64,000 nt of DNA, from the NCBI GenBank assembly GCA_030770535.1, contig JASVEC010000010.1:1302001-1366000 (forward strand), written 5' to 3'. Every line of letters begins with the position of its first letter. The first letter of the stretch is position 1. The DNA comes from Batkoa obscura (Eukaryota). Shown here one piece after another: positions 2,555 through 40,024 of this stretch. Under the pieces are notes generated by a model. The model was not told the DNA's origin. It ran no database searches and saw only the letters and a list, made by a program, of their open reading frames with translations. Made by a program: the position numbers and the translations under genes.

Positions 2555-5019
2555 GGGGTTGTCTGAATTAGTTTCATTATTTTATCCAATTTTTGAAAAA
2601 TTTTGTATTTTAAAAACTTCGCTTAAAATTCTATAAAATCACATCTTTTATTAAAACAAAAGTACCCAAACACAGTTCTAAATCATTCTATTATAGCTCA
2701 TACTGTAAGTTAGTTGAATTTCTACTAGATCTTAAATACATGTTCTTATAAAGCTTAATTGAGAAATATTTACTATCAACTGCTTTATAACCAACATTGT
2801 AGATTTATTATCAAATAAATAAACTATTTTAATGTTATAATTACATTATTAATATACTGCCAAGTTAATAAATAGCTGCATGGGAGGGAGTGGTTAGCCC
2901 CAAAACTATAATTAACCATCCCTATATAGTATAAGTAATAATAGTTTTTACATATTATTACAGTTACTTGTTCTTTGACTATTTATTAACTTAGCTATTA
3001 ATAACTTAAGTAATCCTAACATTTAACAATCTATTTCTATCATTTAACAAAGTACTTACTTGCTTAGTAAATATCGAAATTTTTAAATTCTCTGTTATCT
3101 TCGTAAGGTAAGCTGGGATCGATCTTTTAATTTTTCTGTTTTCTATAGACTCTATAACTTTAATTGGGACTATATCGCTTTTTTTTGATGTATCAGATAC
3201 TGGATAACAATGTAGTTTATTGTTATGTTTAATAAAATGTAAATACTTCTTAATGCCCTGCATCTCTATTATTCTTTTTGTATTTTTGTTTCTTTTATAC
3301 TTCTTAAAAATTATATCTGTTTTCCCATTATTAACAGTCGAGTTATTAATTTTATTATGCTCACAAATAAAAGCCTCAAATCTTGAAATTAATTGATCGA
3401 TATCTTCTATTTTACCTAACGCTTCAAAACTACTTTTCCATTTTGAAAGGTTTCCAAAATGTCCATCAACTATACTTTTTCCATGATGCTCAGCAAAAAA
3501 ATTAAGATTGACATTCAAACTACTATTTATTTTATGAATTTCTTTAAACATATAGTGTAGAAACTCTTGGGATCTAAAATGATTTCCTGTATCTGCCCAT
3601 ATATTAATTTTTGTAAACTTTTTAAATAGAAGCTCTGTAGAGATTAAATCGATTAAACAATCTCCTGCATATGCTGAATCATGATTCAATATTTCAGATA
3701 AATAATCAAAGTAAACTTTGCCTATCGTTTTATCATCTTTTAAATATAATACACCAAAGCCTAATACTGATATAGCTTGTTTATTATAATGATCTAGATT
3801 TATTGAATCTGGTCTTGTTCCTATTTCCATATTTTGTTTAAAATCTAAAACTATTATACAACTTTTGTTATTTAATTTTTTGATAGTTTCATTAAATGTG
3901 TTTTTTTGAGTATCAACACAGAATTTATGTAATTTGTATAATTTTTCTTCTTCGTTGAAAATTTCTTGTATCTCTGCTTTGTTTTTTGCTGTATTTATTT
4001 TATTTTCAAATAACTTTTTTCTAACTGTATACTGGGTACATATATTACATAGATCCGTTTTTCTTGCTGGATTTTTGAAATTAGTTGGTATATATTTAAA
4101 GAACGTTGACCTAGCTACTGCTTTATCTCTTAGATCATTCAAATATTTACTATATATCATTCTTCTACTTTTATTTAATATATATATATTATCTGATGAA
4201 TATTTACTATCGTTATTTTTTTTATTAAATCTTGATGAAATAGTTGAATCATTTAGTAAATATTGTATGATAGTTTCAATTTGGTCATCTTTAATTTTTT
4301 TTGTATTTTTAATAATAGGTTTTAATGTTGATATTTTATTATTATTACTTGTTTTTGAATAATCATATTGATTTCTATTTATATTAAACCCAAAACTCTT
4401 ACATTCATCAAAAGAATATACTGAAGCTATAGTTGATAATAACGCTACTTGCTGACTTTTGTTTCCTGTTTCCCTTAAAGCACTAATTTTATACATTACT
4501 TGATTAAGTTTATTATTATCGATAGTAAACTTTGATAATATATCTTTTCTTTGTTTTGTTTTATTATAAAATTCCATAAACCTTGGGTTGTTATAAGTAG
4601 CTCTTAAAATTGATGTAAATGAATTACAATGTTTATATTGTGTACTCCTCCCTATTGTATTGAAGTTTTCAAAAATTCCATTTCGAAGTTTAGTTATGAA
4701 AGTTTGCATTTTATTTTTATTTCAACAAAAAATAAAGTCAAATAAAGTCAAATAATTGTGTTTATATAATTATGTATTTATATAATTATATAATCATATA
4801 GTTATATATTATATATCTGTTAAATATCTAACAGAACTAACATAAAATACATAGTTAGGAAAATTAGCTATTTAAGAAAAGGAAACAATTAAAATAAGTT
4901 TTAAATAGAGACATTTAATTTTAGGCTTTTTAGATTTAACCGTTATATTGAACACAAACTTGAAATTTTAAATTTGGATTAATTTCTAAGTAGATTCTGA
5001 AACCAATTAGGACAGCCCC
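2555..5019 (-). mobile_element. Sola2-like DNA transposon, copy 1 (intact)
   Basis: Imperfect TIRs GGGGTTGTCTGAATTAGTTTCA / GGGGCTGTCCTAATTGGTTTCA. 4-bp TSD ATAT (2551-2554, 5020-5023). Single transposase ORF. Confidence 0.85.
3006..4709 (-). CDS. DDD transposase, Sola2-like (567 aa)
   Basis: Motifs DLCNIC...H (Zn-binding-like), IIVLDFKQN, IWADTGNHF and FFAEHHGKSIVDGHFG resemble the Sola2 catalytic motifs (DF..N / SD....F / HGK...DG). Lies inside TIRs. Confidence 0.85.
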   Translation of the reverse strand: MQTFITKLRNGIFENFNTIGRSTQYKHCNSFTSILRATYNNPRFMEFYNKTKQRKDILSKFTIDNNKLNQVMYKISALRETGNKSQQVALLSTIASVYSFDECKSFGFNINRNQYDYSKTSNNNKISTLKPIIKNTKKIKDDQIETIIQYLLNDSTISSRFNKKNNDSKYSSDNIYILNKSRRMIYSKYLNDLRDKAVARSTFFKYIPTNFKNPARKTDLCNICTQYTVRKKLFENKINTAKNKAEIQEIFNEEEKLYKLHKFCVDTQKNTFNETIKKLNNKSCIIVLDFKQNMEIGTRPDSINLDHYNKQAISVLGFGVLYLKDDKTIGKVYFDYLSEILNHDSAYAGDCLIDLISTELLFKKFTKINIWADTGNHFRSQEFLHYMFKEIHKINSSLNVNLNFFAEHHGKSIVDGHFGNLSKWKSSFEALGKIEDIDQLISRFEAFICEHNKINNSTVNNGKTDIIFKKYKRNKNTKRIIEMQGIKKYLHFIKHNNKLHCYPVSDTSKKSDIVPIKVIESIENRKIKRSIPAYLTKITENLKISIFTKQVSTLLNDRNRLLNVRIT

Positions 5020-6344
5020 ATATATTACTTTTTTCGAAATTTTAATTTCTAAACAACTGGTTTATTTTACTACCTTGGAATCTGAAAAATACATTAGGAA
5101 TTAAATATATATATCATTTTCAACATAGCTTTACTTTTTTATCAGTGTTAGCAAGTTGCTTTTGGTTGTAATGAAATCAAAATTACTGTTTTTTATTTTA
5201 GAGTGAATATTCTAATTGCTATAAAATGATATTTTTTATAGTGGAAAAGTGATTATAAAAACAACACATCAAAAAGATAATCACTCTTATAACTAACCTT
5301 GATTAGTTAAAATGTTAGCAGAATTTTTAGAACTTATTTTTTCATATCATGTAACAAATTTTGGGTTTTGAGTTATCATATCATAGTTTTGATGGAGTGT
5401 TAAATAATAAATGTTTTTTATATTCTTGAAAGAGCCACAAGCTCTTGAGTATTTTATTAAATAGAAAGTAGCTAAAATGTTGTGAAAGAGAGATGGCCCA
5501 TTTTCTTAGAGCTTTGGACCACTTTTATTACGAGAAAGACAAAATTTTTGGGATTTTAAGCTTTCACCGACGCTATTTTCTATTCTTTAAATAAAGTGCT
5601 ACATATTAGTACTGAAATCTGAATTTAAAAATGAAAGTTTATAAGTATGATAAATTTGTCATAGAACAGAAGTGTAAAAATTCCCAACCAACATTTTTGG
5701 CAGTACATTTAATAAATTGATGTAGTCCTGAAGAGAAATACCTATATAGTATGAGCCTGATAATATAATAAACACGTTCAATTCAATTTAACAAAGTAAA
5801 TAGCTAAAGTTATAGTAAGTTTTGTTTTAACATTACAATTATAATTCTTGTTGAAAATGAGTTAGAAAAATGATGTAAAACACGAATTTAGATTACTTAT
5901 AGCAGTTATTTTGTTAATCATACTTTACAACTTTTTTTCAATAGCTCAAATATCTAAAAACGAAATTTGGTAATAGTGAAAGTTTTATTACTAAAATTTA
6001 AAAACATTGTTTATATCAGTAAATAAATCAAATTTAGATGGGTAGCATCGGTGTTTCAAAATATTGATGATATCTGATAAAGGTATATAATTATTATTAT
6101 TGTGCCCACCTTTATTGTAGTTGTTTCAATATCATAATTTAGAGTTTCACGAAATAATCTTAGAACTTGAATCAATTTAGTTTATATTGAGATGTCATAT
6201 TTCGAATTTTTTAGTAAGATAAATAAGATGTGATAGAAAATTCAATATGATATGAAGATTAGTATTAAAAGAATCGAAGTAATTTATTATAAAATATCAA
6301 TTTATAAAAAGCATGTCTTTCAAGAAGAAAATTAAAAAAGATAA

Positions 6345-7783
6345 ATGAGCATCGGTTGCTTTAGTTCCAATTTTAAAATTATAAAAATTTAATAGTTTTA
6401 AAGATTTGAGGGTGTTTTTTTGGCTTCATCACTTTTTCCATCTTTCAAGTGTTATTTGAGTGAAGGAATTATTAGTAAAAATTTTAAACACAAAAATACA
6501 TCACCATTTGGTTATCTTGGCATTTACCTTTATATTTTCACTCATTAATGGTGCTCGTCAACCATTGATTTCTTTACTACATTCTGGGGTTGTAGGTGCT
6601 TTTACAAATTATATCATAGATTCTTAAAATAACCCAATGCTGGCTATCCAAGCTTTTAAACTTACGATTACAACATTATGCCTTCAATTTTTTGAAGTTG
6701 GTATTACTGTTTTAGTTGCTGCACACGGAAAAATCAGTTTACGGGTGGTAGTAGGCAAAAACTAAGCATTATATATAAGACAAAATTACTATAAAGCAAT
6801 TTTATCACAAGAAATCGGTTAATTCGATACAATTTATTCAGAGGGTATAGCTTCCTATGTATTTGGAGATATGCACTTAGTGCAAAGTGGTATATCTGAA
6901 AAATTAGGTTTTATGATTCAAAACTTTTTCAGCTTTCTTTCGGACTATATTGTAGCTTCTGCCCAATGTTGTGGATTTAGTTTAGTTTTAATGGTTATAA
7001 CCCCCTTAGTTACTGTTGTTGTTGTTTTTTATCAAAAGAGTTGCTCATTATCTACTAGCGATCAAAACGCTTATGGAAAAGCTAGATCAATGGCTGGGGA
7101 AGTGTTATCATTTGTTTGAATCATTTATGCTTTTGGATCTCCGAGAAGAGAAATCTTAAGGTATGAGTAGAAACTTTTTCAAACAAACAAATATGATCAC
7201 AAAAGTTCAGTTATTTTTGTAGTTAATATTGTTCGAGTTGAGTTTATTGCGTTTTTGACTTATTCACTAAAAATGTGTTATGGCAACAACTTTATTGCAA
7301 AGCAAGAGCATAAACCAGAAAATTTAACTTCAGTGCTTTTTCAATTATTTGAAGAGCTCTATCGATTAGGTATAGTTCACTTTTTTTGACTGCTTTAGCC
7401 ACTGGACAAGAAGCGGCAGCTAAACTATCTTAGGTGATCAAAAGATAATCTAAAATAGATACATTTACATATATCGCATTAATGAAGCAAAAGGAGGATA
7501 AAGTAAGTAAACTTCAAGGTGAAATTTTATTTAATAATATCGTTTTTTCCTATCCAACGCGTTTTGATATTATTAGATTAAATGTGTTAAATTCAAGAGT
7601 TGATATCAGTACTATTATGGTTTTAGTTAGACCTTTAGGATCCAGTAAAAGTAGTGTAATTGGACTAATTGAAGGGTTTTATGATGAAAATTCGGGTTCA
7701 ATCACTATTGGTAATATAAATATAAGTGAAGTTAGTATTGAGTTTTTAAGAAGTTAAATTGTCATTGTTAGACAAAAGCCTAT
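6345..7783 (+). pseudogene. ABCB/MDR-type ABC transporter pseudogene, copy 1 (TMD1 and start of NBD1)
   Basis: Remnant motifs INGARQPL, SQEIG.FD, D..LVQSGISEKLG, FSYPTRFD and a degenerate Walker A (RPLGSSKS). Many stops and frameshifts, a MITE inside, and truncation by Sola copy 2 near the Q-loop. Confidence 0.85.
6408..6505 (+). mobile_element. About 100-bp Sola-type MITE
   Basis: Family consensus GGGGATGT...ACATCCCC (degenerate here); TSD ATTT on both sides. Confidence 0.8.
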
Positions 7784-10245
7784 GGGGTTGTCTGAATTAG
7801 TTTCATTATTTTATCCAATTTTTGAAAAATTTTGTATTTTAAAAACTTCGCTTAAAATTCTATAAAATCACATCTTTTATTAAAACAAAAGTACCCAAAC
7901 ACAGTTCTAAATCATTCTATTATAGCTCATACTGTAAGTTAGTTGAATTTCTACTAGATCTTAAATACATGTTCTTATAAAGCTTAATTGAGAAATATTT
8001 ATTATCAACTGCTTTATAGCCAACATCGTAGATTTATTATCAAATAAATAAACTATTTTAATGTTGTAATTACATTATTAATATATTGCCAAGTTAATAA
8101 ATAGCTGCATGGGAGGGAGTGGTCAGCCCCAAAACTATAATTAACCATCCCTATATAGTACAAGTAATAATAGTTTTTACATATTATTACAGTTACTTGT
8201 TCTTTGACTATTTATTAACTTAGCTATTAATAACTTAAGTAATCCTAACATTTAACAATCTATTTCTATCATTTAACAAAGTACTTACTTGCTTAGTAAA
8301 TATCGAAATTTTTAAATTCTCTGTTATCTTCGTAAGGTAAGCTGGGATCGATCTTTTAATTTTTCTGTTTTCTATAGACTCTATAACTTTAATTGGGACT
8401 ATATCGCTTTTTTTTGATGTATCAGATACTGGATAACAATGTAGTTTATTGTTATGTTTAATAAAATGTAAATACTTCTTAATGCCCTGCATCTCTATTA
8501 TTCTTTTTGTATTTTTGTTTCTTTTATACTTTTTAAAAATTATATCTGTTTTCCCATTATTAACAGTTGAGTTATTAATTTTATTATGCTCACAAATAAA
8601 AGCCTCAAATCTTGAAATTAATTGATCGATATCTTCTATTTTACCTAACGCTTCAAAACTACTTTTCCATTTTGAAAGGTTTCCAAAATGCCCATCAACT
8701 ATACTTTTTCCATGATGCTCAGCAAAAAAATTAAGATTAACATTCAAACTACTATTTATTTTATGAATTTCTTTAAACATATAGTGTAGAAACTCTTGGG
8801 ATCTAAAATGATTTCCTGTATCTGCCCATATATTAATTTTTGTAAACTTTTTAAATAGAAGCTCTGTAGAGATTAAATCGATTAAACAATCTCCTGCATA
8901 TGCTGAATCATGATTCAATATTTCAGATAAATAATCAAAGTAAACTTTGCCTATTGTTTTATCATCTTTTAAATATAATACACCAAAACCCAATACTGAT
9001 ATAGCTTGTTTATTATAATGATCTAGATTTATTGAATCTGGTCTTGTTCCTATTTCCATATTTTGTTTAAAATCTAAAACTATTATACAACTTTTGTTAT
9101 TTAATTTTTTAATAGTTTCATTAAATGTGTTTTTTTGAGTATCAACACAGAATTTATGTAATTTGTATAATTTTTCTTCTTCGTTGAAAATTTCTTGTAT
9201 CTCTGCTTTGTTTTTTGCTGTATTTATTTTATTTTCAAATAACTTTTTTCTAACTGTATACTGGGTACATATATTACATAGATCCGTTTTTCTTGCTGGA
9301 TTTTTGAAATTACTTGGTATATATTTAAAGAACGTTGACCTAGCTACTGCTTTATCTCTTAGATCATTCAAATATTTACTATATATCATTCTTCTACTTT
9401 TATTTAATATATATATATTATCTGATGAATATTTACTATCGTTATTTTTTTTATTAAATCTTGATGAAATAGTTGAATCATTTAGTAAATATTGTATGAT
9501 AGTTTCAATTTGGTCATTAATTTTTTTTGTATTTTTAATAATAGGTTTTAATGTTGATATTTTATTATTATTACTTGTTTTTGAATAATCATATTGATTT
9601 CTATTTATATTAAACCCAAAACTCTTACATTCATCAAAAGAATATACTGAAGCTATAGTTGATAATAACGCTACTTGCTGGTTTTTGTTTCCTGTTTCCC
9701 TTAAAGCACTAATTTTATACATTACTTGATTAAGTTTATTATTATCGATAGTAAACTTTGATAATATATCTTTTCTTTGTTTTGTTTTATTATAAAATTC
9801 CATAAACCTTGGGTTGTTATAAGTAGCTCTTAAGATTGATGTAAATAAATTACAATGTTTATATTGTGTACTCCTCCCTATTGTATTGAAGTTTTCAAAA
9901 ATTCCATTTCGAAGTTTAGTTATGAAAGTTTGCATTTTATTTTTATTTCAACAAAAAATAAAGTCAAATAAAGTCAAATAACTGTGTTTATATAATTATG
10001 TATTTATATAATTATATAATCATATAGTTATATATTATATATCTGTTAAATATCTAACAGAACTAACATAAAATACATAGTTAGGAAAATTAGCTATTTA
10101 AGAAAAGGAAACAATTAAAATAAGTTTTAAATAGAGACATTTAATTTTAGGCTTTTTAGATTTAACCGTTATATTGAACACAAACTTGAAATTTTAAATT
10201 TGGATTAATTTCTAAGTAGATTCTGAAACCAATTAGGACAGCCCC
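7784..10245 (-). mobile_element. Sola2-like DNA transposon, copy 2 (intact ORF, non-matching flanks)
   Basis: Same TIRs as copy 1 and nearly identical sequence. Flanks CTAT / AAAT do not form a TSD. Confidence 0.85.
8235..9935 (-). CDS. DDD transposase, Sola2-like (566 aa)
   Basis: Near-identical to 3006-4709, with a one-codon deletion (KIKDDQ to KINDQ) and a few substitutions. Confidence 0.85.
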   Translation of the reverse strand: MQTFITKLRNGIFENFNTIGRSTQYKHCNLFTSILRATYNNPRFMEFYNKTKQRKDILSKFTIDNNKLNQVMYKISALRETGNKNQQVALLSTIASVYSFDECKSFGFNINRNQYDYSKTSNNNKISTLKPIIKNTKKINDQIETIIQYLLNDSTISSRFNKKNNDSKYSSDNIYILNKSRRMIYSKYLNDLRDKAVARSTFFKYIPSNFKNPARKTDLCNICTQYTVRKKLFENKINTAKNKAEIQEIFNEEEKLYKLHKFCVDTQKNTFNETIKKLNNKSCIIVLDFKQNMEIGTRPDSINLDHYNKQAISVLGFGVLYLKDDKTIGKVYFDYLSEILNHDSAYAGDCLIDLISTELLFKKFTKINIWADTGNHFRSQEFLHYMFKEIHKINSSLNVNLNFFAEHHGKSIVDGHFGNLSKWKSSFEALGKIEDIDQLISRFEAFICEHNKINNSTVNNGKTDIIFKKYKRNKNTKRIIEMQGIKKYLHFIKHNNKLHCYPVSDTSKKSDIVPIKVIESIENRKIKRSIPAYLTKITENLKISIFTKQVSTLLNDRNRLLNVRIT

Positions 10246-10815
10246 AAATGTTAAGATTACTTAAGTTATTAATAGCTAAGTTAATGAATAGTCAAAGAAC
10301 AAGTAACTATAATAATATGTAAAAACTATTATTACTTGTACTATATAGAGATGGTTAATTATAGTTTTGGGACTAACCACTCCCTCCCATGCAGCTATTT
10401 ATTGACTTATCAATATGTGAGTGTTTTTTTGACTTCATTACTTTTTCCATTTTTTAAGCGCTATTTGAGTGGAAAAACTATTAATAAAATTCCTAAACAC
10501 AAAAAAACATCTCCATATATTAATAATGTAATTATAACATTAAAATAGTTTATTTATTTGATAACAAATCTGCAATGTTGGTTATAAAGCGGTCAATAAT
10601 GAATGTCTCTCAATAAAGTTTTATAAGAATATGTATTTAAGATCTATTAAAAATTCAGCTAACTTACGGTATAAACTATAATAGAATGATTTAGAACTGT
10701 GTCCAGGTACTTTTGTTTTAATAAAAAATTTGATTTTATAGAATTTTAAGCAAAGTTTTTTTAAATACAAAATATGTGAAAATTGGATAAAATAATGAAA
10801 CTAATTGATAACCTC
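10246..10815 (+). mobile_element. Older Sola 3'-end fragment in opposite orientation, containing a MITE (about 10417-10514)
   Basis: Starts at AATGTTAAGATTACTTAA (transposase end NVKIT*), follows the Sola 3' UTR and ends in a degenerate TIR ...GAAACTAATTGATAACCTC. Confidence 0.8.
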
Positions 10816-11697: not shown

Positions 11698-12693
11698 CAA
11701 TAGCGCTTAAAAGATAGGAAAAGTGATGAAGCGAAAAAAAAACTCGCGTATGTTAGTTTAATATAAGTAAAGCTAGGAGTCAAATGTAGCTTTGTAAAAT
11801 TTTAAATAAAATACCCATATAGACTACTTAAATCATTTTGTGAGGCACTTATCTTAATCTTATTTTATAAATCAAAATTTATTTTTAGTAGTGACGGATT
11901 TTTTCCTAATTAATACATTAATTGAATTGGTTTCTTTATAATGGAAGTTGCTTAAGGTGGTTTTATGGTTATCTAACTTTAGCTAAATATTATACAATAC
12001 AAAAACACCTACATTAATTTGAAACTTTTTTACATGAAAAAGTCATTTTAATAGCACAGATTGGTATATCAGTATTTTAGCAGTGACATTTAGATAAAAT
12101 AATAGTAGTTGTTAATTAATTTTTCCTTTGATCTTATTTTTGATATCAGAAAAATAATTTGTTTAATGAAAACGTAATTTTATATTTAGTTATAAATACA
12201 GCACTATTATTCAAAATGTGTATGAAAAAGATACTAATTTATAAAACAGATGTGCTTATTAAACTTCATAAATTAAAACAAATTGATCTTAAAAATACCA
12301 TATGTGGGTGTTTTTTTTGGCTTCATTTTCTTAATCTCTTAAACGCTATTTGAGCGGAAAATTTGTTAGTAAAATTCTTAAACATAAAATGTATCCCCAT
12401 ACCTTTTACAAAAACTAGCACAGATTTATTTTTTCGTTAAATCTAAGGATTTACTTAGGAATTAATAATTTATGATATTAATTGACAATAAAAAACTAAA
12501 TTGTGGCGCGAACTCTCAAAAGTAATAAACCGGTTATTATCACCAGAGCTAATTGGAACATTTGAAAAGTAGCTAAATAAACAAGACTATCCTTTATGGG
12601 ATATTCATTGCAACAAACTATAAAGTATATAAGTAAACAGAAAATGTAGAATATAAAGTATAAAATAAAACAAAGTTTATCTCGTTAATCAAC

Positions 12694-13915
12694 ATGGCTA
12701 CTAAAGAGTATGTAACTTATATAGCCAAAGTGGTATATCCAGCAATGTATAAAACATCATTAGCGTTAGCTTCATTGCTAGTTTTAACAATGATAGCAAT
12801 ATGTAACTTATATTATGATTTCAAATATAGACTAAAACTTTATAGCAATATATGACCGTAAACTAGTTGACAGGGTGACACTTAGAATACAAACTGTCAT
12901 TTCATGTTACGATATATGGTTGCATTCTTTACCACTATGGAGTTCCAAGTATAACCATCAAGGGTCACCTTTATGTACTTTTATTGGCTACCAACTATTA
13001 GCTTTACCTTTATTCTATAGTTTTCTTAATGTCTGCATTGGAATTAATATGCAATTAATTTTTATACATGGAATCAATGTGACATGGAAGATTGAAGCAG
13101 CCTACTGGATTGGATCAGCTTTGCTTACTTTCTTAATTACCATCCCACCTCTCGGTATAAAATTTTCATTATCTATGTTGACATTAAGATTAACCTTGTT
13201 TTGTTTAGCAATGGGGATGTTTGGGTACAGTGAATTCAACGGATGTTTTATTGCAACAGATGATGAAAATTATCTAAAAATGTTCCATTTCTATTCTAAT
13301 ATGTTGATTATGATAGTTTGTATGATTTATTTATTCATAGTTGTGGTTTTCGTTGTAGCTAAAATATATCGAGGATTGAATTTGATAAAAGAGCAAAAAC
13401 TGGCTATAGATGCTAGTCAATCACCCGAAGCTGTTAGAAATATCAGATTATTTGCTTCAAGAATGTAAGATCTCATATTGATATATTTTGTTGTACTAAA
13501 AATATTTCAGCGTATTATATCCTATAATTATGATTATCTCTCATTCCGGATTAATAGTAAATCAAACAGCTTATGACCTTGCTAACATCACGTCTGATGA
13601 TTTGGACGTTTTTTCACTTATTACTGGTGGAATGTTAGGAACTCTTAATTTTGTTGCTTTTTTACTTGACCCAACTGTACACCATGCGTTTATAGTTATC
13701 TATTATAGGGTAGTAAAAAAACAAGAGATTAAAGAATTAGGATCCAATGAACCAAGTAGTTTAGTTTACTCTATTAGTTAATATACTAAATTTTATTAGA
13801 CTATAATGACGTTTTTGAGTTGAAAAGATCTAAAGATGCTGCTAGGGAAGACATCAATAATGAAACTGGAGAGCGAGCATCTATTCAATATTCAAAGTTT
13901 ATTAAAAGTTTGTAA
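12694..13915 (+). CDS. 7-TM GPCR-like receptor G2, type-A cytoplasmic face (344 aa predicted); member of pair 1
   Basis: Predicted exons 12694-12802, 12846-13154, 13209-13464, 13511-13755 and 13800-13915 join to an open 1035-nt frame ending YSKFIKSL*. Seven hydrophobic segments and a TM3/ECL2 Cys pair. Intron 2 is an in-frame 54 nt. Confidence 0.85.
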
Positions 13916-14475
13916 CGATATATTTGATATATATGCTGTATGCTTTTGAAATTATAATCAACAGCCGTATTTTCATATTTAGTCCTTTTAAAAATTGTTC
14001 TAGAAATTGAGCTCTCAGTTTTGAACATACATTTCTCAATAACTGATAATTGAACGCTACTCTCTTTTTCATTTGAATTAACATTATTGTATATATATGA
14101 AGCATTAGTTTTGCAAATTTCATATTAAATCACATATAATGAAATAGTTAAATTTTATACAGCTTGGAAAAATTGTATAACTTATAAAATTATTATAAAC
14201 GTTTTTTTTCAAAATTTAAGCAAATTTTATATTCTAATAGGTTATAAAAATACATTAAATAACATACCAATATTGATATTTTAATTAAATATATCAGAGT
14301 GTTTTTTTGATTTCATCACTTTTTCAATTTTTAAACAATATTTAAGCAAAAAAATCGCTAATGGAATTCTTAAACATAAAAATACATCCCCATATGTTGC
14401 CCAGTATATAGTTAGAAAAAAAATAGCAATAAAAAATAGAACAGAGATAAAAGAGTTTTTCAATAGTAATGAGTT

Positions 14476-14939
14476 CCAAGATATCACCTTGTCAGTTCTA
14501 TGATTGATTATGACATGATAATCGTTTAGGCTGTTGTGTTCTCGAGTTCAGAGACAATCAATCCCAAAATTTTATTTTGATTTGCTATGAGAATTTCTAT
14601 CTTCATTCTGAAGGACATTGTTATCTTCTCATTTTGATATTTGTACTTGTCAGAATATAAAAGAGATTTTAGAGTATAGTAACTCCAGGCTTTTTAACTG
14701 AATTATCCGTTAACATCCTATCTTTAATAAAGCCACTAAATCTTTCTGATAGTGTTTTATGCACATTCCACACTATTATTATTTATAATATTTGTCTTAC
14801 ATAGTCTGTAGTATATTACTTGCTATCCTTCATAATCCAAGTCTATCTTAGTCACATAAACTAATAACTTTCGACTTATAATATAGTCAACCAAGCAATA
14901 GCTATTCTTGACTCTAATTACTGAGTACCAGATTTCACA
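14476..14939 (+). mobile_element. Solo-LTR-like element (family L), left arm of an inverted pair
   Basis: Homologous to family L, with a degenerate 5' end and a 3' end GATTTCACA; flanked by Sola transposase fragments. Confidence 0.8.
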
Positions 14940-15074
14940 ACCTAATATTTGGTAGATTAAAAAAAAGTGATATAGTTCCAATTAAAGTTATAAAGTTTAT
15001 AGAAAGTAAAAAAATCAATCTTATCTTATCTTACAAAAATAGCAGAAAATTTAAAAGTTTTAACATTTAACAAG

Positions 15075-15539
15075 TATAAAATCTGGTACTCAGTAATTAG
15101 AGTCAAGAATAGCTATTGCTTGGTTGACTATATTATAAGTCGAAAGGTATTAGTTTATGTGACTAAGATAGACTTGGATTATGAAGGATAGCAAGTAATA
15201 TACTACAGACTATGTAAGACAAATATTATAAATAATAATAGTGTGGAATGTGCATAAAACACTATCAGAAAGATTTAGTGGCTTTATTAAAGATAGGATG
15301 TTAACGGATAATTCAGTTAAAAAGCCTGGAGTTACTATACTCTAAAATCTCTTTTATATTCTGACAAGTACAAATATCAAAATGAGAAGATAACAATGTC
15401 CTTCAGAATGAAGATAGAAATTCTCATAGCAAATCAAAATAAAATTTTGGGATTGATTGTCTCTGAACTCGAGAACACAACAGCCTAAGCGATTATTATG
15501 CTATAGTTAGCCATAGAGCTGACAAAGCGATATTTCACA
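15075..15539 (-). mobile_element. Solo-LTR-like element (family L), right arm of an inverted pair
   Basis: Reverse complement of about 14520-14934, near-identical; terminus ATATTTCACA at 15539. Confidence 0.8.
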
Positions 15540-16368
15540 ATAGGTTTTTAGTAGACTTTTTAATCTTTTTAGTATTTGTTTTGATTCAATATTTCAAATA
15601 TAAGGAATTTTTAATTGTGTTACTCTTAAAAACGAATCAACCATATTAATAGTCAGTTAATTCATACTTAATCGAGTTTTTGCTATATGGGGATATATTT
15701 TTGTGTTTAAGAATTTTATTAACAATTTTTCCGCTCAAATAACGCTTAAAAATGGAAAAAGTGATGAAACCAAAGAACATCCCTATATAGTTCTTAGTTT
15801 TGTTTAAAGTAGATGCATTTATACCAAATTGAAAATTATATAGAAAGGAGTTTCTGGTATATACTTTTTTACTTTAAAAAGAAGTTACTATACTACCAAT
15901 GCTTTTAATAGCCAAGTAAACCTAACATATAGTATTTTAACATATGTTTTATAGGTTCTTAATACTTGTTAACAATTAATAACTATTATAGAAATTTAAT
16001 AAAAAAACCCAAAATGCGAATTTTCATTACATAATCTAATGTTTCAAAATCACACAATATAAAATAATTTTAGCATCCATTGAAGATGCTCGTTTTTTAA
16101 TAAATATACCCTTTAATAACCTACCTCCAACGCTTTATTTATATTGTCTCATTCTTTAACAACTTTATTAGTGTTTATGGGGAAAAAACCAAAAACCTAT
16201 ACAAACCACTACATTTTAAGAATTTTTTTATTCAAAAACAAGTCTTACGATGTTTTATTCGAGAAAAAATAGGAAAGGTTCATTTTAAAAAATTTAAACA
16301 AATATTTAACAAAGTCAAATTTGATAAAAAAGCTTTAAGCGCCTCACTTTGTTTAATTTTGTTAAAAG

Positions 16369-17548
16369 TTATAGAGTTCGAACAAATGCATTAAAGCTTT
16401 TATCAAAAGCTTCCTGAGGTGTAAGATGTTCTAAAGAATCCGGACTAGCATAGTTATTTAAATCGATATTAATAGTAAAAAACTTAGTTCTATTGGTAGT
16501 TTCTGATTCATCGCGAAACGTGTTCCTGGTAATAAATCTTAAATATATTTTTCTAAATGCCGAATGAATAGTAGGATCACAACAAAAAGCAATAAAGTTA
16601 AGAGTTCCTAACATTCCACCAGTAATAAGTGAAAAAATGTCCAAATCATCAGACGTGATGTTAGCAAGGTCATAAGCTGTTTGATTTACTACCAACCCAG
16701 AATGAGAGATAATCATAATTGTAGGATACAATAATCTAAAAAATATGTTAGTACAAATCTAATTTATATATACATACATTCTAAAACCCATAAGCTTCAC
16801 GCTTTTAACTGCCTCTACAGAAGCTGCTGATCCTCGAAATAACCGGAACTTTTTAACTAGCTCTGCCTCCTCGTTCAACTTAATTACAACGAAAACCACA
16901 ACTATGAATAAATAAATCATACAAACTATCATAATCAACATATTAGAATAGAAATGGAACATTTTTAGATAATTTTCATCATCTGTTGCAATAAAACATC
17001 CGTTGAATTCACTGTACCCAAACATCCCCATTGCTAAACAAAACAAGGTTAATCTTAATGTCAACATAGATAATGAAAATTTTATACCGAGAGGTGGGAT
17101 GGTAATTAAGAAAGTAAGCAAAGCTGATCCAATCCAGTAGGCTGCTTCAATCTTCCATGTCACATTGATTCCATGTATAAAAATTAATTGCATATTAATT
17201 CCAATGCAGACATTAAGAAAACTATAGAATAAAGGTAAAGCTAATAGTTGGTAGCCAATAAAAGTACATAAAGGTGACCCTTGATGGTTATACTTGGAAC
17301 TCCATAGTGGTAAAGAATGCAACCATATATCGTAACATGAAATGACAGTTTGTATTCTAAGTGTCACCCTGTCAACTAGTTTACGGTCATATATTGCTAT
17401 AAAGTTTTAGTCTATATTTGAAATCATAATATAAGTTACATATTGCTATCATTGTTAAAACTAGCAATGAAGCTAACGCTAATGATGTTTTATACATTGC
17501 TGGATATACCACTTTGGCTATATAAGTTACATACTCTTTAGTAGCCAT
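16369..17548 (-). CDS. 7-TM GPCR-like receptor G3, type-B cytoplasmic face; member of pair 1
   Basis: ATG at 17548. The 5' ~665 nt match G2. ICL3 KLNEEAELVKKFRLFRGSAASVEAVKSVKLMGFR; tail FCCDPTIHSAFRKIYLR...AFVRTL*; no fourth intron. Confidence 0.85.
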
Positions 17549-20002
17549 GTTATATAAAAATTTGAAGCTCAATATTTGCTATGCTTTCTCTAATTTTCGC
17601 CACCTTTTATACTTTTTAAAAGGTATGAAATTTTAAACCTGTTATAAATACATTTCTAAAAGTGCTTGTTCTGTTTTGAGTTTTTTTAGTAGAGATTTAA
17701 AACTAGAGATTTTTCATAAAATGATTCATTTTTAATAGAAATTTATCCCTGCTTCTATCCACTTTGCTGTTCCATAAATTTTCAAAAACTAACAATGATG
17801 GAATGAATAATATTACGATTTCATTATTAAGTATAGAGTTTATTAAAAAATTATCAAAATTCCCTTATCTAATATTTAAATATAGCTGAGATGTAGGTAA
17901 TATATAACATATATAGCCACTAAATAATGGCATCGAAATACCATAACTAAAGCTACTATATAAACTTTAATTTTTGAATCCTTGAAGTGGACTTTTGTAT
18001 AGGCATTACTTTGTAATTCAACCAATCATTAAAATTAATAAAGCAATTTCAACTTTTTGTGGCATCACTCACATTTGCATAAACAAGATTTGATTTTGGA
18101 ATATTTGTTTAGAGCATTTGGTCTTTGAAATCAAAAATGAATATTTGTTTAGTCATTTTATTCTTAAATATACATATAAACCTTGTACATCTATAAGTAT
18201 CCTTAAATCACTTTATTTGAAAATATAGTGAGTATCATAAAGTATAATGATTCTGTATATTTCCACATATTATTATATAAATTAATTAACTTTAATATTA
18301 TTTTTACCATTTACGGTTACAGTTTAAGTCTATACACTTTTTGAAATATAATTATGTGATTATCCAGCTTTACATATTTCAAAAGCATGACTATTGTTAC
18401 TTTTTTCGGATCATTTTTGATTCGCAGACTCAAAACCTTAAATCTTCATTATATAACTTTCAAGTTAAAATAATGTAGAGATATTTTTTTGGTTTCATTA
18501 CTTTTTCTGCTTCTAAAGCGCTATTTGAGTGGAAAGACTATCAGTAAAATTGTCCAGCCTTGTTGCATAAAAGACAGGCAAAAAATAAAACTAGAAAAGA
18601 TATCACTATAATTTTAATATCATGCGTTAGTTTTGAAAGGTGAAATAAAAAATTTATTTATTGTAATTGATAACTCAAAAATAAATACGGTTCATAGAAT
18701 ACTATTACATTAGTTTACTACCTAAACTATACATTGGCTTATGAAGTCTGTAGGATAAATTCCAAAAATAGCTTAATTATTTAATCTATACAACTTAATG
18801 ATAAAAAATACATGCTTAAAATCTATTCATTAAATTATAATTTGATTTTTTAATAAATATGAATATAAATCCCTCAAACATAGTCATATTAAGAACGTTG
18901 ATGTTAAAAAAGGTATTGCATCATGTATGCTAGATATTAGGCTTCAAGCTAAACAAAATAGCCATATTAGAAAGTAAATAAGCAACCAAAATAAAGTATA
19001 GTTATCCAAAATTTAAAAATTCTGAAAAAACATGGAAGTGTTTTTTTTGGCTTCATTATTTTTTCCATTTTTTAAGTGTCATTTAGGCGGAAAATTTGTT
19101 AGTAAATTCTTAAACACAAAAACACATCCTCATATTGTAGATGTTCTCTATCAAATACGATATTTTTCATAAATCTACTTATATCAATTTTATATCGATC
19201 CACATACAAAAAACAACTTTGTTTTGGGAGAGGCCAGTATTTAACTAATTTACAATGACTTAGATGGTTTTGACTTTATTTTTTGGAACATCTAAACTAA
19301 TTTTATACAAATTCTTTGCATATTTGCGAAATTAAGCTATAAATGTTTAAAGTCCGAGGTGCTGGTATCTGGAATTAAAAATAGTGCATGCTGCGTAAAC
19401 ATATGGAATAATAAATTGAAAATAAAAATGTGGCAAAATTACATCTAAAATCCAAATAAACGTGATCAAATATAACTCACAAGTGAATTGTTGATAAGAA
19501 CATTTCTGAATTTATTTGTTTATTTATAGAATCAATAATTATGAAGGTTGATTTTTGATGTAGATAATATTGTATCCATGTAATTTTTCTTTTCTTTATT
19601 ATTAGTCCTTATATTAATACTTTCAGTGATGAACTTATTAAAATTAATATTTAATGCCCTTTGACTTTAAAAAAAATTAACTCTATAATTCGACTAAAAC
19701 TTTGTATTAATTTCACTATCACTATTTTATTCCAATCCTCCATGTAACTTATAATCAAATAATTTAGTGTAAATAGAGATATAGCTAAAAGTGTTATAAT
19801 GGCATTTAATATGATCAAGTTTAAAGTTTGATAAAATTTTAATCATAAATAAATATGGAGGTGTATTTTTGTGCTTAAGAATTTTACTAATTTTTTCACT
19901 TAAATAGCACTTAAAAGATGTAAAAAGTGATGAAACCAAAAAAGACATCCCTATATACTGTTTGATCTAATAATTGAAATTCTGCTGTTTGTGTGATACA
20001 AT

Positions 20003-21134: not shown

Positions 21135-22360
21135 TTATAAGCTTTTGATCAAGTTAGAACTAATAATGCTACATTGATCCTCTCTTTCATTATCAATGTT
21201 TTCTCTTATGCCACTTTCTAATATATTCAATTCGAAATCGACATTTATACCTAAAAAAAATAAATAATTGATTAATCCGAACATATAAATTTACTCAGGT
21301 TAGTAGATTGAACCTCTTCAATCTCTTGATTCTTTATAGTTCTCGAATAAATAACTTTGAGCGCATGATGTACAGTTGGGTCGAGAAAGAATGCAATAAA
21401 ATTAAGAGTCCCTAACATCCCACCAGTAATAAACAACAAAATATCTAACATGGGTGATTGGGTATCAGCAAGATCAAGAGCTGAGTTATTTATTACTAAC
21501 CCAATGTGAGAAATAATCATAATTATAGGATATAATGTACTGAACGATATTTAACTTTAGATATTAATAAGTATAAAATCTTACACCCTTGAAATAAGTA
21601 ATTTGGTTTTTTTAATTGCTTCTGAGGATAATTCATTGTCTACCGCTTCTCTTTGACCATTTATTAAATCAAGCCCTCGATAGAGTTTTATAGCAACTAA
21701 TGCTACAACAGTTAATAAATAAGCCATGCAAATAATCAAAACTAAGGTGTTGGAGTAAAAATGTAACATCTTAGAGTAATCTAGATTCCTGCCTGCAATG
21801 AAGCACTTATTATAGCTACCAAATCCAATCAATCCCGTTGCTAAATAAAATAAGATTATAATGCTTCAACGAGTATATTAATAATTGTACCAAGCGGTGG
21901 GATAGTAATTAACATTATGAGTACAAAAGTTCCAATCCAATAACCTGCTTCTACTTTCCATGTTACGCTAATGTTATGCAGAAAGACTAATTGTAAATTA
22001 ATCCCAATAGCAGCATTGAGAAAGCTATAATATAAAGGAAAGAACAGTAGTTGGTAAGCAATAAATGTACATAAAGGTGATCCATCTTTATTATATGGAC
22101 GATTCCATAGTGGTAAAGAATGCAACCAAATATCATATAATATAACACCAGTTTGTAGCCTAAGAGTTACTCTATCAACCAATTTAAAATCATATATTGC
22201 TATTGCTAAATTAGAATATTATATTAATTGATAGATAGTTCTAGTACTTACTTAACAATACCATTGTAAGTACTACTATGATGGCCAATACTAAGGATAC
22301 TCGCGATATTGTTGGATAAACCACTGAGTGTACATATTTACTATATTCTTCGAGATTCAT
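21135..22360 (-). CDS. 7-TM GPCR-like receptor G4
   Basis: ATG at 22360 (MNLEEYSKYV...). Five exons in the family pattern; last exon ends SSNLIKSL* at 21135. Confidence 0.85.
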
Positions 22361-23289
22361 TATGATAAAAATTGATTTTTATTGGAATCAAATGCTCGTA
22401 TTTATATTCCATTTTAAGTACATTGTTTTCTATCCCTTAGAATTTTCGATTTCCTAATATATCCCATACAATGTTCTATCTTAAAATACATAGACATTGG
22501 GTCAATATTAATATTGCATTTTCAACTCCAATACTAATTTATTTTTAGTTTGTTTTTTTGGAAAGTCTATTTGCAAGTCTAAATAACTACCAATTTTTAA
22601 CGTTATAAAATTTAAAAAATATAGGGTTGTTTGGATCAAACCCATTTTTGGTCTATTATATTTGCACATTATTAATAGATAGTTTGATTGATTAGATAGA
22701 TTTGAAAGCTTAGTTGAAATTAAAGATGAAGTTTCTCATTTCACTCTTTTATCGATTTTTTATGTAGTGTAAATTTTTGAAAAAACCTTAAATAATAATA
22801 AAAAACGTTCCCATACAATTTTAAAACCAAGTAAAAAGCCAACTAATTTCATAGCACTTTGTGCTTAATTTACATTTTTGCTAAAATCTAAATTGAACAA
22901 AAATTAAACTAAGCTCCTAAACTAACTCATATAGAGATGTGTTTTTTAGGAACTTTACTGGTAACCTTTCTACTTAAATAGCATTTAAAAAATAAAAAAG
23001 CGATGAAATTATAAAAACATCCGCATTATAGGAAATTCAATTTTAACCATACTAAAATGAATTCTGCCAATTAAAGTGGCTTTTTAAATATGCTTTTTGC
23101 CCTTTTTTGACATTGTATAAATTCACTTTAATCAAAATAAAGTATGTATTGGCACTGGATCTACTAACAATGTGTCAATAATTTTTTCGTTTGTACATTT
23201 GGTTCGAAAAATAATACTTTAATAAGAACATTGAAAACAAAGCAAAAGAATGAAAGTTTTAAAATAAATTATAATTTTTTGATTAAGCT

Positions 23290-23765
23290 AGAGTAAGTAC
23301 TAGTACCCTGATTTTTGACATTAATATCCACATTTCCTGAAGTATTGGTTTCTAAAACGACTAATTCAAATTTAGCTTCAAAATCTAATTGAAAAAGATT
23401 AGTATATAAAAAGCAATAAAAAACATACTTCTTATCTCATCCTTTATCTGTTGATTAATCTCTTGTTTTTTGACAGTTCTATAATAAATAATTTGAGTGC
23501 ACTTTGTGTTGATGGACATAAAGATCCAAAAATTTAATAATCCTAGCATACCACCTGGGGATATATTTTTTTGTTTAAGAATTTTGCTAACAATCTTTCT
23601 ACTCAAATAGTGCTTAAAAAACGAAAAAGTAATGAAACCAAAAAAAACATCTCCACCTGTTAAATAAGCAAAATATCTAGCTCTAATGAATCAATTTCGA
23701 TAAATTCAGATATCATTTGATTAATTGCTAAGTCAGAATGAGTAACAATTATAACTATTGAATAT
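23290..23765 (-). pseudogene. GPCR relic G5 (TM6 to tail), MITE-interrupted and LTR-truncated
   Basis: GGMLGLLNF and YYRTVKKQEI remnants. MITE at 23557-23654 with ACCT TSD. Homologous to 30264-30460. Confidence 0.75.
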
Positions 23766-24219
23766 TGCGAAATATCGCTTTGTTAGCTCCATGATTGATT
23801 ATAGTATAATAACCACTTAAGTTGGTATGTCCTCAAATTCGGGCACAGTCAATCCTGAGCTTCTATTTTGATTTGATATGAAAATTTTTAACTTCACCAC
23901 AAAGGATATTATCCTCGCGTTTTGATATACATACTTATCAGAGTATAAAAGAGATTTTAAAACATGATAGCTCGAGGCTTTTTACCTGAATTATTCCCTG
24001 ATAGCTCATACATTTAATAAAGCTATTAAGTTTACTTAATAGTATTTTACGTACATTTTACATTAGTACTATCTATCCTATTTGTCTTACATAGTCCGTA
24101 GCCTATTGCGTGCTATTCTTCATAACTCAAGTCTATCTTAGCCATATAAACTAAGACCTTTCGACTTAGAATATGGGAGTGTCTTTTTTGACTCAAATGA
24201 CTGAGTACTAGATTTCACA
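23766..24219 (+). mobile_element. Solo-LTR-like element (family L), diverged, no TSD
   Basis: TGCGAAATATCGC...GATTTCACA. The left flank is a GPCR relic and the right flank a Sola transposase fragment (24221-24385). Confidence 0.8.
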
Positions 24220-26182
24220 ACTTTGTAACCTTAATTGGAACTATATCGCTTTTTTTTATGTATTGGATACTGGGTAACAGTGTAGTTTATTATTATATTT
24301 AATAAAACGTGAATATTTCTTAATACCTTGCATCCGTATTATTCTTTTGTATTTTTGTTTCTTTTATACTTTTTAAAAATTATATGGGGTTGTCTGAATT
24401 AGTTTCATTATTTTATCCAATTTTTGAAAAATTTTGTATTTTAAAAACTTCGCTTAAAATTCTATAAAATCACATCTTTTATTAAAACAAAAGTACCCAA
24501 ACACAGTTCTAAATCATTCTATTATAGCTCATACTGTAAGTTAGTTGAATTTCTACTAGTTCTTAAATACATGTTCTTATAAAGCTTAATTGAGAAATAT
24601 TTATTATCAACTGCTTTATAACCAACATTGTAGATTTATTATCAAATAAATAAACTATTTTAATGTTGTAATTACATTATTAATATATTGCCAAGTTAAT
24701 AAATAGCTGCATGGGAGGGAGTGGTCAGCCCCAAAACTATAATTAACCATCCCTATATAGTACAAGTAATAATAGTTTTTACATATTATTACAGTTACTT
24801 GTTCTTTGACTATTTATTAACTTAGCTATTAATAACTTAAGTAATCCTAACATTTAACAATCTATTTCTATCATTTAACAAACTACTTACTTGCTTAGTA
24901 AATATCGAAATTTTCAAATTCTCTGTTGTCTTCGTAAGGTAAGCTGGGATCGATCTTTTAATTTTTCTGTTTTCTATAGACTCTATAACTTTAATTGGGA
25001 CTATATCGCTTTTTTTTGATGTATCAGATACTGGATAACAATGTAGTTTATTGTTATGTTTAATAAAGTGTAAATACTTCTTAATGCCCTGCATCTCTAT
25101 TATTCTTTTTGTATTTTTGTTTCTTTTATACTTTTTAAAAATTATATCTGTTTTCCCATTATTAACAGTCGAGTTATTAATTTTATTATGCTCACAAATA
25201 AAAGCCTCAAATCTTGAAATTAATTGATCGATATCTTCTATTTTACCTAACGCTTCAAAACTACTTTTCCATTTTGAAAGGTTTCCAAAATGTCCATCAA
25301 CTATACTTTTTCCATGATGCTCAGCAAAAAAATTAAGATTAACATTCAAACTACTATTTATTTTATGAATTTCTTTAAACATATAGTGTAGAAACTCTTG
25401 GGATCTAAAATGATTTCCTGTATCTGCCCATATATTAATTTTTGTAAACTTTTTAAATAGAAGCTCTGTAGAGATTAAATCGATTAAACAATCTCCTGCA
25501 TATGCTGAATCATGATTCAATATTTCAGATAAATAATCAAAGTAAACTTTGCCTATTGTTTTATCGTCTTTTAAATATAAAATACCAAAACCCAATACTG
25601 ATATAGCTTGTTTATTATAATGATCTAGATTTATTGAATCTGGTCTTGTTCCTATTTCCATATTTTGTTTAAAATCTAAAACTATTATACAACTTTTGTT
25701 ATTTAATTTTTTAATAGTTTCATTAAATGTGTTTTTTTGAGTATCAACACAGAATTTATATAATTTGTATAATTTTTCTTCTTCGTTGAAAATTTCTTCT
25801 ATCTCTGTTTTATTTTTTATTGCTGTATTTATTTTATTTTCAAATAACTTTTTTCTAACTGTATACTGGGTACATATATTACATAGATCCGTTTTTCTTG
25901 CTGGATTTTTGAAATTACTTGGTATATATTTAAAAAACGTTGACCTAGCTACTGCTTTATCCCTTAGATCATTCAAATATTTACTATATATCATTCTTCT
26001 ATTTTTATTTAATATACATATATTATCTGATGAATATTTACTATCATTATTTCTTTTATTAAATCTTGATGAAATAGTTGAATCATTTAGTAAATATTGT
26101 ATAATACTTTCAGTTTGCTCATCTAATTTTTTTTGTATTTTTAATAATAGACTATAACGTTAATATTTTATTACTATTATTA

Positions 26183-26281
26183 GGGAGTGTTTTTTTTGAC
26201 TTCATTATTTTTTCCATTTTTTAAGCGCTATTTGCGTAGAAAATTTGTTAGTAAAACTCTTAAACACAAAAACACATCCTC
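26183..26281 (+). mobile_element. About 100-bp Sola-type MITE inserted in the transposase
   Basis: TSD ATTA; the empty site is visible in copies 1 and 2. Confidence 0.85.
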
Positions 26282-26593
26282 ATTACTTATTTTTGAATAA
26301 TCATATTGATTTTTATTTATATCAAACTCAAAACTTTTACATTCATCAAAGGAATATATTGAAGCTATAGTTGATAATAACACTAATTGTTGGTTGTTAT
26401 TTCCTGTTTTTCTTAAAGCACTAATTTTATATATTGGTTGATTAAGTTTATTATTATCAATAGTAAACTTTGATAATATATCTTTTATTTGTTTCGTTTT
26501 ATTATAAAATTCCATAAATCGTGGGTTGTTATAAGTGACTGTTAAAATTGATGTAAATGAATTACAATGTTTATATTTCGTACTTCTCCCTAT

Positions 26594-26691
26594 GGGGATG
26601 TTTTTTTTAACTTTATTACTTTTTCTATCTTTTAAGTGCTATTTGAGTGGAAAATTCTTAGTAAAATTCTTAAACACAAAAATACATCCCC
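26594..26691 (+). mobile_element. About 100-bp Sola-type MITE inserted in the transposase
   Basis: GGGGATGT...ACATCCCC with TSD CTAT; the empty site CTCCCTATTG is in copies 1 and 2. Confidence 0.9.
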
Positions 26692-26956
26692 CTATTGTAT
26701 TAAATTTTTCAAAAGTTCCATTTTAAAGCTTAGTTATGAAAGTATGGATTTTATTTTTATTTCAACAAAAAACAAAGTCAAATAAGTGTATTTATATAAT
26801 TATATAATCATATAGTTATATATTATATATCTGTTAAATATCTAATATAAATAACACAAAACATATAGTTAGGAAAATTAGCTATTTAAGAAAAGGAAAC
26901 AATTAAAACAAGTTTTGAATAAAGAAATTTAATTTAGGCTTTTTAGATTTGGCCGT

Positions 26957-27356
26957 TGTGAAATATCGCTTCGTCAGTCCCATGGTTAATTATTTTGATT
27001 TGTTATGAGAATTTCTAGTTCCGCCCAAAAGAATATTATCTTCTCATTTTGATACTTATACTTTTCAGAGTATAAAAGAGTTTACAGAGTATAATAGTTC
27101 GAGGCTTTTTAACTGAATTAATCCCTGATATCTCGAACATTTAATAAAGCCACTAAGTTTTCTTAATATTATTTTACATAGATTTTACATTAGTATTGTC
27201 TATTCTATTTGTCTTATATAGCTTGTAACCTATTACGTGCTATTCCTCATAATCCAAGTCTATCTTAGTTACATAAACTAAGACCTTTCGACTTATAGTG
27301 TAGTCAACCCAGCAATAGCTGTTCTTGACTCCAAACCCTGAGTACCAGATTTCACA
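26957..27356 (+). mobile_element. Solo-LTR-like element (family L, internally deleted, 400 bp)
   Basis: TGTGAAAT...ATTTCACA with perfect 4-bp TSD CCGT, inside the Sola 5' UTR. Confidence 0.9.
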
Positions 27357-39962: not shown

Positions 39963-40024
39963 ATGGTTATATAATTATATAAATCCAGTTATTTGACTTT
40001 ATTTTTTTTTGAAATAAAAATAAA

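Follow-up and report, generated by a model that had tools for sequence, protein, structure and literature searches.

How do two neighbouring receptor genes stay identical, letter for letter, in some of their parts and strongly different in others? This question is raised by G2 and G3, two intact genes for proteins of G-protein-coupled receptor (GPCR) fold, which lie convergently (tail to tail, with ATGs at 12694 on the forward and 17548 on the reverse strand) in a 64,000-nucleotide (nt) stretch of Batkoa obscura DNA (GenBank assembly GCA_030770535.1, contig JASVEC010000010.1, positions 1,302,001 to 1,366,000), hereafter called the window and numbered from its first letter. An earlier reading, made from the letters only (the sequence-only reading), had taken them for two receptors of one ligand with different or opposing outputs, held together by gene conversion restricted to certain domains. 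We describe here three such pairs, each consisting of one gene of type A and one of type B. It appears fairly probable to us that, within each pair, repeated gene conversion keeps the ligand side near-identical while the inner parts stay distinct, and that the two receptors would respond to one ligand through different intracellular partners. This reading is based on the near-identity of the ligand-side parts and on the distinctness of the third intracellular loop (ICL3), of helix 8, of the tail and, for the two pairs of the window, of the promoter.

In the G2/G3 pair, a first shared tract extends from just upstream of the ATG to the end of the fifth transmembrane helix (TM5). Its 667 nt match without a single mismatch, introns 1 (43 nt) and 2 (54 nt) included. 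The corresponding coding sequences (N-terminus to TM5) of different window loci are only 52-77% identical at the nt level, except for the converting pair G4/G5 (87%), and the match is therefore not due to chance. A cDNA-mediated conversion of this tract is ruled out, since the introns were copied too. The second tract, covering outer TM6, the third extracellular loop (ECL3) and outer TM7, could be given exact limits, with 93 of 94 nt equal; the sole mismatch is at 13608, and patchy similarity flanks the tract, back to 13518. Elsewhere the partners differ, with 39% nt identity around ICL3 and 47% over the TM7 end, helix 8 and tail; intron 3 and the upstream DNA with the promoter differ as well. 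The coordinates given by the sequence-only reading proved accurate. Its gene model of G2, on the other hand, had missed a fourth intron, as shown by contig 25 of sequencing run X6, and the corrected model is used in Table 1. Intron 4 is missing from G3 (16369-16735, reverse strand) but present in G12 (54858-54807) and in the A genes; the residues around the site align gap-free, in what looks like a precise intron loss.

Table 1. Receptor genes of the window considered in the text, and segments of the G2/G3 pair (aa, amino acids).
Feature	Positions	Strand	Remarks
G2, type A gene of pair 1	12694-13915	+	344 aa; introns 12803-12845, 13155-13208, 13465-13510, 13756-13799
G3, type B gene of pair 1	16369-17548	-	346 aa; introns 17439-17397, 17087-17034, 16777-16736; without intron 4
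Shared tract 1, G2 copy	12691-13357	+	from 3 nt before the ATG to the TM5 end; ICL1, ICL2 and introns 1-2 inside
Shared tract 1, G3 copy	16885-17551	-	667 nt, exact reverse complement of 12691-13357
Shared tract 2, G2 copy	13555-13648	+	outer TM6, ECL3, outer TM7
Shared tract 2, G3 copy	16598-16691	-	93/94 nt equal to 13555-13648
Type A cytoplasmic TM5 end, ICL3, TM6 start and intron 3 of G2	13358-13510	+	nt identity 80% to G11, 39% to G3
Type B cytoplasmic TM5 end, ICL3 (FRLFRG motif), TM6 start and intron 3 of G3	16736-16884	-	nt identity 68% to G12, 39% to G2
Type A TM7 end, helix 8 and tail (with intron 4) of G2	13649-13915	+	nt identity 66% to G11, 47% to G3
Type B TM7 end, helix 8 and Ser/Thr-richer tail of G3	16369-16597	-	nt identity 75% to G12, 47% to G2
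G2/G3 spacer between stop codons	13916-16368	.	contains a dispersed 455-nt repeat twice, in inverted orientation, at 14481-14935 and 15079-15533
G11, type A gene of pair 2	51410-52635	+	345 aa; tract 1 at 51416-52072
G12, type B gene of pair 2	54676-55912	-	347 aa; tract 1 at 55906-55250
Control pair G4/G5, both type A	21135-29849	-	G4 22360-21135, G5 29849-28621; common from promoter to TM4, ICL3 and helix 8; ECL2 and ECL3 differ most
G13	60700-61915 (3' end approximate)	-	G12-like promoter, B helix 8, A ICL3; tail frame broken after intron 4

Four of seven sequencing runs were compared with the window: X1 and X2, which are DNA, and X3 and X6, which we guess to be RNA, a guess backed by exact intron skips, no run being on record as RNA. 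Tract 1 forms a single contig in X1 (depth 42.9) and X2 (depth 853), where the unique flanks of G2 and G3 have depths of 21-26 and 428-461, respectively. An assembly collapse or polishing artefact, a danger raised by the sequence-only reading, is ruled out by this about twofold depth in both runs and by junction contigs. In X3, one contig skips intron 2 exactly, G2- and G3-specific pieces stop at the edges of intron 3, and the tail of G3 is present; contigs 21, 22 and 23 of this run support the G3 model. In X6, contig 25 joins the leader of G2 to its own tail and skips introns 1, 3 and 4, and exon pieces end at the edges of intron 2. The G3-specific parts are almost uncovered in X6, which is not counted as evidence. 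Silence of one partner, the second danger raised, is ruled out by the gene-specific spliced pieces of both genes in X3, a bulk run without single-cell resolution. The doubled depth of the tract and the spliced pieces of both genes in one run thus show that the shared tract is no assembly artefact.

The DNA runs also differ slightly from the window. The tract 1 contig of X2 carries 10 differences at 1.9 times the depth of its flanks. Most of them are probably shared by both copies, which would have changed together, since private differences should lower the mean word depth. With the 2 differences of the X1 contig, shared and private ones are not separable. The gene-specific contigs of X2 stop and restart in both genes in such a way that they enclose tract 2 with exactly its 94 nt, and the 31-letter overlaps suggest that the single mismatch of the window is absent there.

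Two further pairs were found. In the window, G11 and G12 are convergent and share a perfect tract 1 of 657 nt, which ends within one codon of that of G2/G3. The third pair comes from Neoconidiobolus thromboides FSU 785, the source of the closest proteins, and is formed by P0007 and P0009 (P numbers denote collected proteins), which have successive accession numbers (KAI9294734.1 and KAI9294733.1) and lie on the same contig of 90,842 nt. The partners are thus neighbouring paralogs in all three cases. Within pairs 1, 2 and 3, aa identity is 100, 100 and 97% from the N-terminus to TM5 and 95, 90 and 98% over outer TM6, ECL3 and outer TM7, compared with 32, 27 and 14% in ICL3. As the sequence-only reading had proposed, trees were built for separate segments, from 16 sequences; three of the 13 candidate loci of the window (G6, G7 and G9) were left out as they have no intact model. 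In all three pairs, the ligand-side parts group by locus pair and ICL3 and helix 8/tail by type. Accordingly, in approximately unbiased (AU) tests, a B clade was rejected for the two ligand-side segments (p = 1.8e-7 and 3.7e-173), and locus pairs were rejected for ICL3 and tail (p = 1.4e-9 and 5.7e-5). Together with the introns carried along and the opposite pattern in pairs of like type (see below), this upholds the idea of domain-restricted conversion.

To locate the differences, face boundaries were set by us on a structural model. Of 87 extracellular positions, 2, 2 and 3 are different within the A/B pairs, compared with 42-43 between loci; in the TM core, 1-3 of 110 are different within the pairs. 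On the inner side, ICL3 differs at 26-35 of 41 positions and helix 8 at 17-20 of 31, compared with 0 of 15 for ICL1 and 0-1 of 19 for ICL2. The claim of a different signalling face therefore stands for ICL3, helix 8 and tail but was overstated, since ICL1 and ICL2 are common to the partners and only part of the face differs. Fourteen columns hold a residue that is fixed among the three B genes and occurs in none of eight A genes; they are all located in ICL3 and the TM6 start (FRLFRG, then SVKxMGFR) or in helix 8, and the segment 16736-16884 of G3 holds 10 of them. ICL3 is 62% identical among the three B genes and 50% among A genes; between G3 and G12, the proportions of non-synonymous (pN) and synonymous (pS) differences in the B loop are 0.19 and 0.78 (pN/pS ~0.24). 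B tails contain 11-12 Ser/Thr per 53-56 residues and six A tails 5-9 per 54-55. The two types are not told apart by ICL3 net charge. Upstream, the A-type promoters are related among G2-G10, G2-G11 and G8-G11 (z 5-13) and those of G3 and G12 are not, so that promoter type tracks tail type in both window pairs.

The full B motif was found in only three of 161 collected proteins, P0006, P0009 and P0155, all from FSU 785; its absence from other species cannot be inferred from this, because clustering at 50% would merge the partners. P0155 represents a fourth B gene. The profile search of 50% representatives gave 1199 matches at E<=0.001, of which the best 150 were examined. A B-specific search with residues 196-353 of P0009 returned only P0009 and P0007 among 119 candidates, and a metagenome scan with P0009 gave 114 pattern matches, none of which was confirmed.

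The window contains 13 candidate loci of this family, 10 of them with a gene model, and two fragments. Several window genes equal FSU 785 proteins at 99-100%: P0002 corresponds to G8, P0010 to G10, P0006 to the second half of G3 (99%) and P0003 to tract 1 of G11/G12. From these matches the window, deposited as Batkoa obscura, very probably belongs to N. thromboides. Short-read assemblies break such genes: the end of P0003 coincides exactly with that of tract 1, and P0006 covers half a gene. The pairs are therefore probably undercounted. P0003, P0006, P0004, P0005, P0013 and P0014 have annotations broken at the shared tract or at introns 2 or 3, and the family is fragmented in databases.

For the fold, the paralogs P0009 and P0007 stood in for G2 and G3. 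Their AlphaFold2 models show seven TMs followed by helix 8, an ECL2 hairpin and long extensions of TM5 and TM6 (mean model confidence, pLDDT, 78.5 and 76.8, respectively). With the P0009 model, the 47 matches listed by Foldseek are all GPCRs, the top ones with template-modelling scores of ~0.5-0.6. The TM3-top and ECL2 cysteines (C90 and C162 of P0009) are nearly invariant in the 16 sequences and would form a disulfide. In the ESM Atlas, the family lies beside cAMP-receptor-like seven-TM clusters, Dicty_CAR being a look-alike with 13% of the top-cluster members. The predicted resemblance is to fungal class V, cAMP-receptor-like GPCRs (PF05462; GprH, Gpr4 and Ta.Gpr1; PMC13308352), which are nearest by language-model features and predicted fold and have the same seven TMs, helix 8 and TM3/ECL2 cysteines. 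Unlike those, the receptors described here lack a Pfam match and form a species-level expansion in an insect-infecting entomophthoralean fungus.

We propose that conversion at the DNA level between neighbouring inverted copies, with introns 1 and 2 carried along, would copy ligand-pocket variants from gene to gene, and that both genes of a pair would thereby track one ligand, which by GPCR topology the shared parts should bind. Tracts overwriting ICL3, helix 8, tail or promoter would likely be removed by selection, and separate promoters and inner faces would provide two ways of responding.

Could the same boundaries arise without selection? An old inverted duplicate may have diverged early in ICL3 and tail, so that conversion acted only where similarity remained; the pair would then have been copied as a unit, A and B would signal alike, and the boundaries would be without functional meaning. 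We consider this unlikely, although the partners are only 39% identical around ICL3 and the split of the inner faces is older than all three pairs. Conversion is moreover frequent across the cluster, also between like genes and with a pseudogene (G4/G5, G9/G13 and G8/G13), and tracts alone therefore prove little. Four results nevertheless favour selection. First, A/A pairs diverge outside and A/B pairs inside: the converting A/A pairs G4/G5 and P0007/P0008 have 28 and 25 extracellular differences of 87 and 6 and 11 of 41 in ICL3, and G4/G5 have ~100 nt of promoter in common, which A/B pairs do not. Second, when A genes from different loci are compared, divergence is as fast in the ECL3 segment (48% identity) as in ICL3 (50%), yet only ICL3 remains unconverted, so divergence speed alone does not set the boundary. 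Third, in tract 2 of pair 2, pS is 0.52 and pN 0.07, whereas pN between loci is 0.31-0.33 at similar pS (Fisher p 0.01); the protein match therefore outlasted the DNA match, with silent sites half-saturated.

The fourth result is the chimera G13. It combines, as described in Table 1, an A loop with a B frame, its promoter resembles that of G12 (z 4-5), and it gives the impression of a B gene whose tail frame was lost after it had acquired an A loop. G9 (47300-48465, reverse strand, with a damaged 5' end), 13.4 kb away, is near-identical to G13 over ~900 nt through ICL3 and intron 3, showing that long tracts do cross this block between like genes; both have broken B-type tails and match truncated FSU 785 proteins (P0050 and P0162). 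Against a purely neutral barrier, ICL3 and intron 3 moreover amount to just ~155 nt between two homologous tracts, and the B motif is conserved, as judged by the pN/pS of its loop.

Several observations weigh against one ligand and two outputs per pair maintained by selection. A single ancestral pair probably gave rise to all three, whose matching boundaries then do not count as three independent trials; the 39%-identical block is itself a strong conversion barrier; G9 and G13 are copies, and the chimera argument counts as one event. All evidence comes from one species, and contigs may conceal copy-specific variants. For at least seven A genes no B partner is known, nor is an A partner of P0155 in the set. 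ICL1 and ICL2 are common to the partners, and the distal tail of P0009 is only 30-31% alike to those of G3 and G12. Four window pieces, three proteins and seven further relatives gave no match to a Pfam GPCR family (Dicty_CAR PF05462, Git3 or 7tm, at threshold), and the family is therefore ranked as working like Dicty_CAR, not as a member. Finally, for one fungal class V receptor a G-alpha partner has not been reported (PMC13308352, section 10).

The A and B faces likely differ in how they act: a difference in G-alpha preference is our single best guess, at slightly below even chances, and a difference in phosphorylation, shut-off and uptake is a clearly less probable second. This order follows two results from animal receptors: in muscarinic receptor chimeras the cytoplasmic ends of TM5 and TM6, ICL3 and parts of the tail are, in combination, the main coupling determinants (PMC13083859), and a helix 8 swap in dopamine receptors altered desensitisation but not coupling (PMC6824627). 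One receptor of each pair, B or A, might instead be a non-signalling or fast-internalising sink that takes up its partner's ligand and shapes the local ligand level. Atypical chemokine receptors offer an analogy for such decoys. Ser/Thr-richer B tails and separate promoters would fit, as would the small number of B genes, three of the four known ones having an A twin. The B loop is however the more conserved one (62% against 50%), and it is nearer than that of A to several basal relatives (e.g. 41% against 29% for P0102), as would be expected of a retained coupling surface; a sink is accordingly rated as improbable.

An obligate A-B heterodimer whose transmembrane interface is kept matched by conversion, an idea put forward for CCR2/CCR5 (cited in PMC2720389), appears more doubtful still. 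The few TM core differences within pairs (1-3 of 110) and the presence of both genes in one presumed RNA run are consistent with it, but such a dimer needs no match of N-terminus, ECL2 and ECL3, which all match, and it leaves the different promoters and the many A genes without B twin to be accounted for. A flip switch, in which crossover between the perfect inverted arms of the convergent window pairs (667 and 657 nt) inverts the 3.5-kb middle and, as the arms start at the start codon, would leave two intact genes with exchanged promoters in front of their inner faces, is very improbable, given that the A tail stands behind an A-related promoter in both window pairs (z 5-13) with the G3 and G12 promoters unrelated to those, and that contig 25 of X6 links the leader of G2 to its own tail. 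No inverted form was seen in short-read contigs, which cannot span the arms.

Returning to selection-maintained pairs with one ligand, a broader version may tentatively be put forward, with rather less confidence than the reading itself: a fungal paired-receptor system built from GPCRs, in which each new ligand specificity would be transferred, by conversion over two tracts, to two conserved signalling chassis that have promoters of their own and act through G proteins in opposite or stage-specific ways, and in which rare arm inversion could swap promoters. Paired receptors matched by conversion are known from animal immunity, and the cases found are single-pass proteins. SIGLEC5 and SIGLEC14 have ligand domains kept matched by partial conversion and signal in opposite ways (PMC4042635). 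The same arrangement, with adjacent genes, a near-identical ligand part and a different signalling part, is found in SIGLEC11/16 (PMC4042635) and in CEACAM pairs (PMC5112662, PMC2832619); in such systems, promoter-swapped or fused alleles can arise. Those pairs differ in having single-pass receptors, one 5' tract and outputs through immunoreceptor tyrosine-based inhibitory or activating motifs (ITIM/ITAM) shown by experiment; here, a fungal seven-pass receptor has two separate tracts that skip ICL3, and the different outputs are putative.

Conversion among mammalian GPCR paralogs is likewise documented, for CCR2/CCR5, CCR1/CCR3, CXCR1/CXCR2 and EMR2 with CD97 and EMR3 (PMC2880985, PMC2684142 and PMC2720389), also as clustered mosaic paralogs with lasting boundaries. 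In the CCRs, however, conversion is mainly transmembrane and reaches extracellular loops only sometimes, and in the published proposals structural parts stay common and ligand domains diverge, whereas all extracellular parts are common here and the inner loop and tail stay apart. For Conidiobolus coronatus (C. coronatus), 125 putative GPCRs are reported, and gene conversion is unmentioned in the passages covered (PMC12387763); nor are paired receptors or gene conversion in this sense discussed in two fungal GPCR overviews searched for these terms (PMC13308352, PMC12842992). No report of fungal or ICL3-sparing converted GPCR pairs was found in the literature searched, which consisted mostly of open-access main texts, while supplementary gene tables could list these receptors. 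In D2 long/short and EP3, for example, splice variants of a single GPCR also combine one ligand pocket with alternative ICL3 or tail parts. The pairs described here differ in that two genes are involved, each with its own promoter, and in that conversion, not a shared exon, would keep the pocket equal. If correct, this would mean that the same paired design arose in another kingdom and another fold. Fungal class-V-like receptors are mostly orphans; the three pairs, in which the ligand side is constant and the inner face comes in two forms, would amount to natural ICL3/tail swap experiments and a clean test of how such receptors choose G-alpha.

Among the other receptor genes of the window, G10 (49093-50135, forward strand) encodes 295 aa and ends directly past helix 8, as does its FSU 785 counterpart P0010, with a decayed tail downstream; it may still be functional as a tail-less receptor. 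The two repeat copies in the middle of the G2/G3 spacer belong to a ~460-nt dispersed family (further copies at 1-442, 23750-24220, 26990-27358, 39497-39976, 53102-53584 and 58487-58953) and form a 97% hairpin, other copies being ~80% alike, which suggests local conversion between the two. A ~110-nt repeat of very high run depth has at least 14 copies in the window (e.g. 12257-12399, 14298-14403 and 15665-15808) and is inserted in the GPCR pseudogenes G6 and G7 and in a fragment at 23418-23779.

Four near-identical copies (95-99%) of a ~2.5-kb element are located at 2549-5027, 7778-10253, 24382-26179 and 39989-42181. It has short terminal inverted ends and a 566-567-aa open reading frame (ORF) without Pfam match, which we take to be of DDE type from its motif, and is likely a DNA transposon that was active recently. 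Amid the receptor cluster, a 467-aa ORF that has no introns and carries a Peptidase_M64 domain (IgA peptidase family; 35292-36695, reverse strand) adjoins glycyl-tRNA synthetase-like (31613-33364) and zf-DNL (34686-35153) genes.

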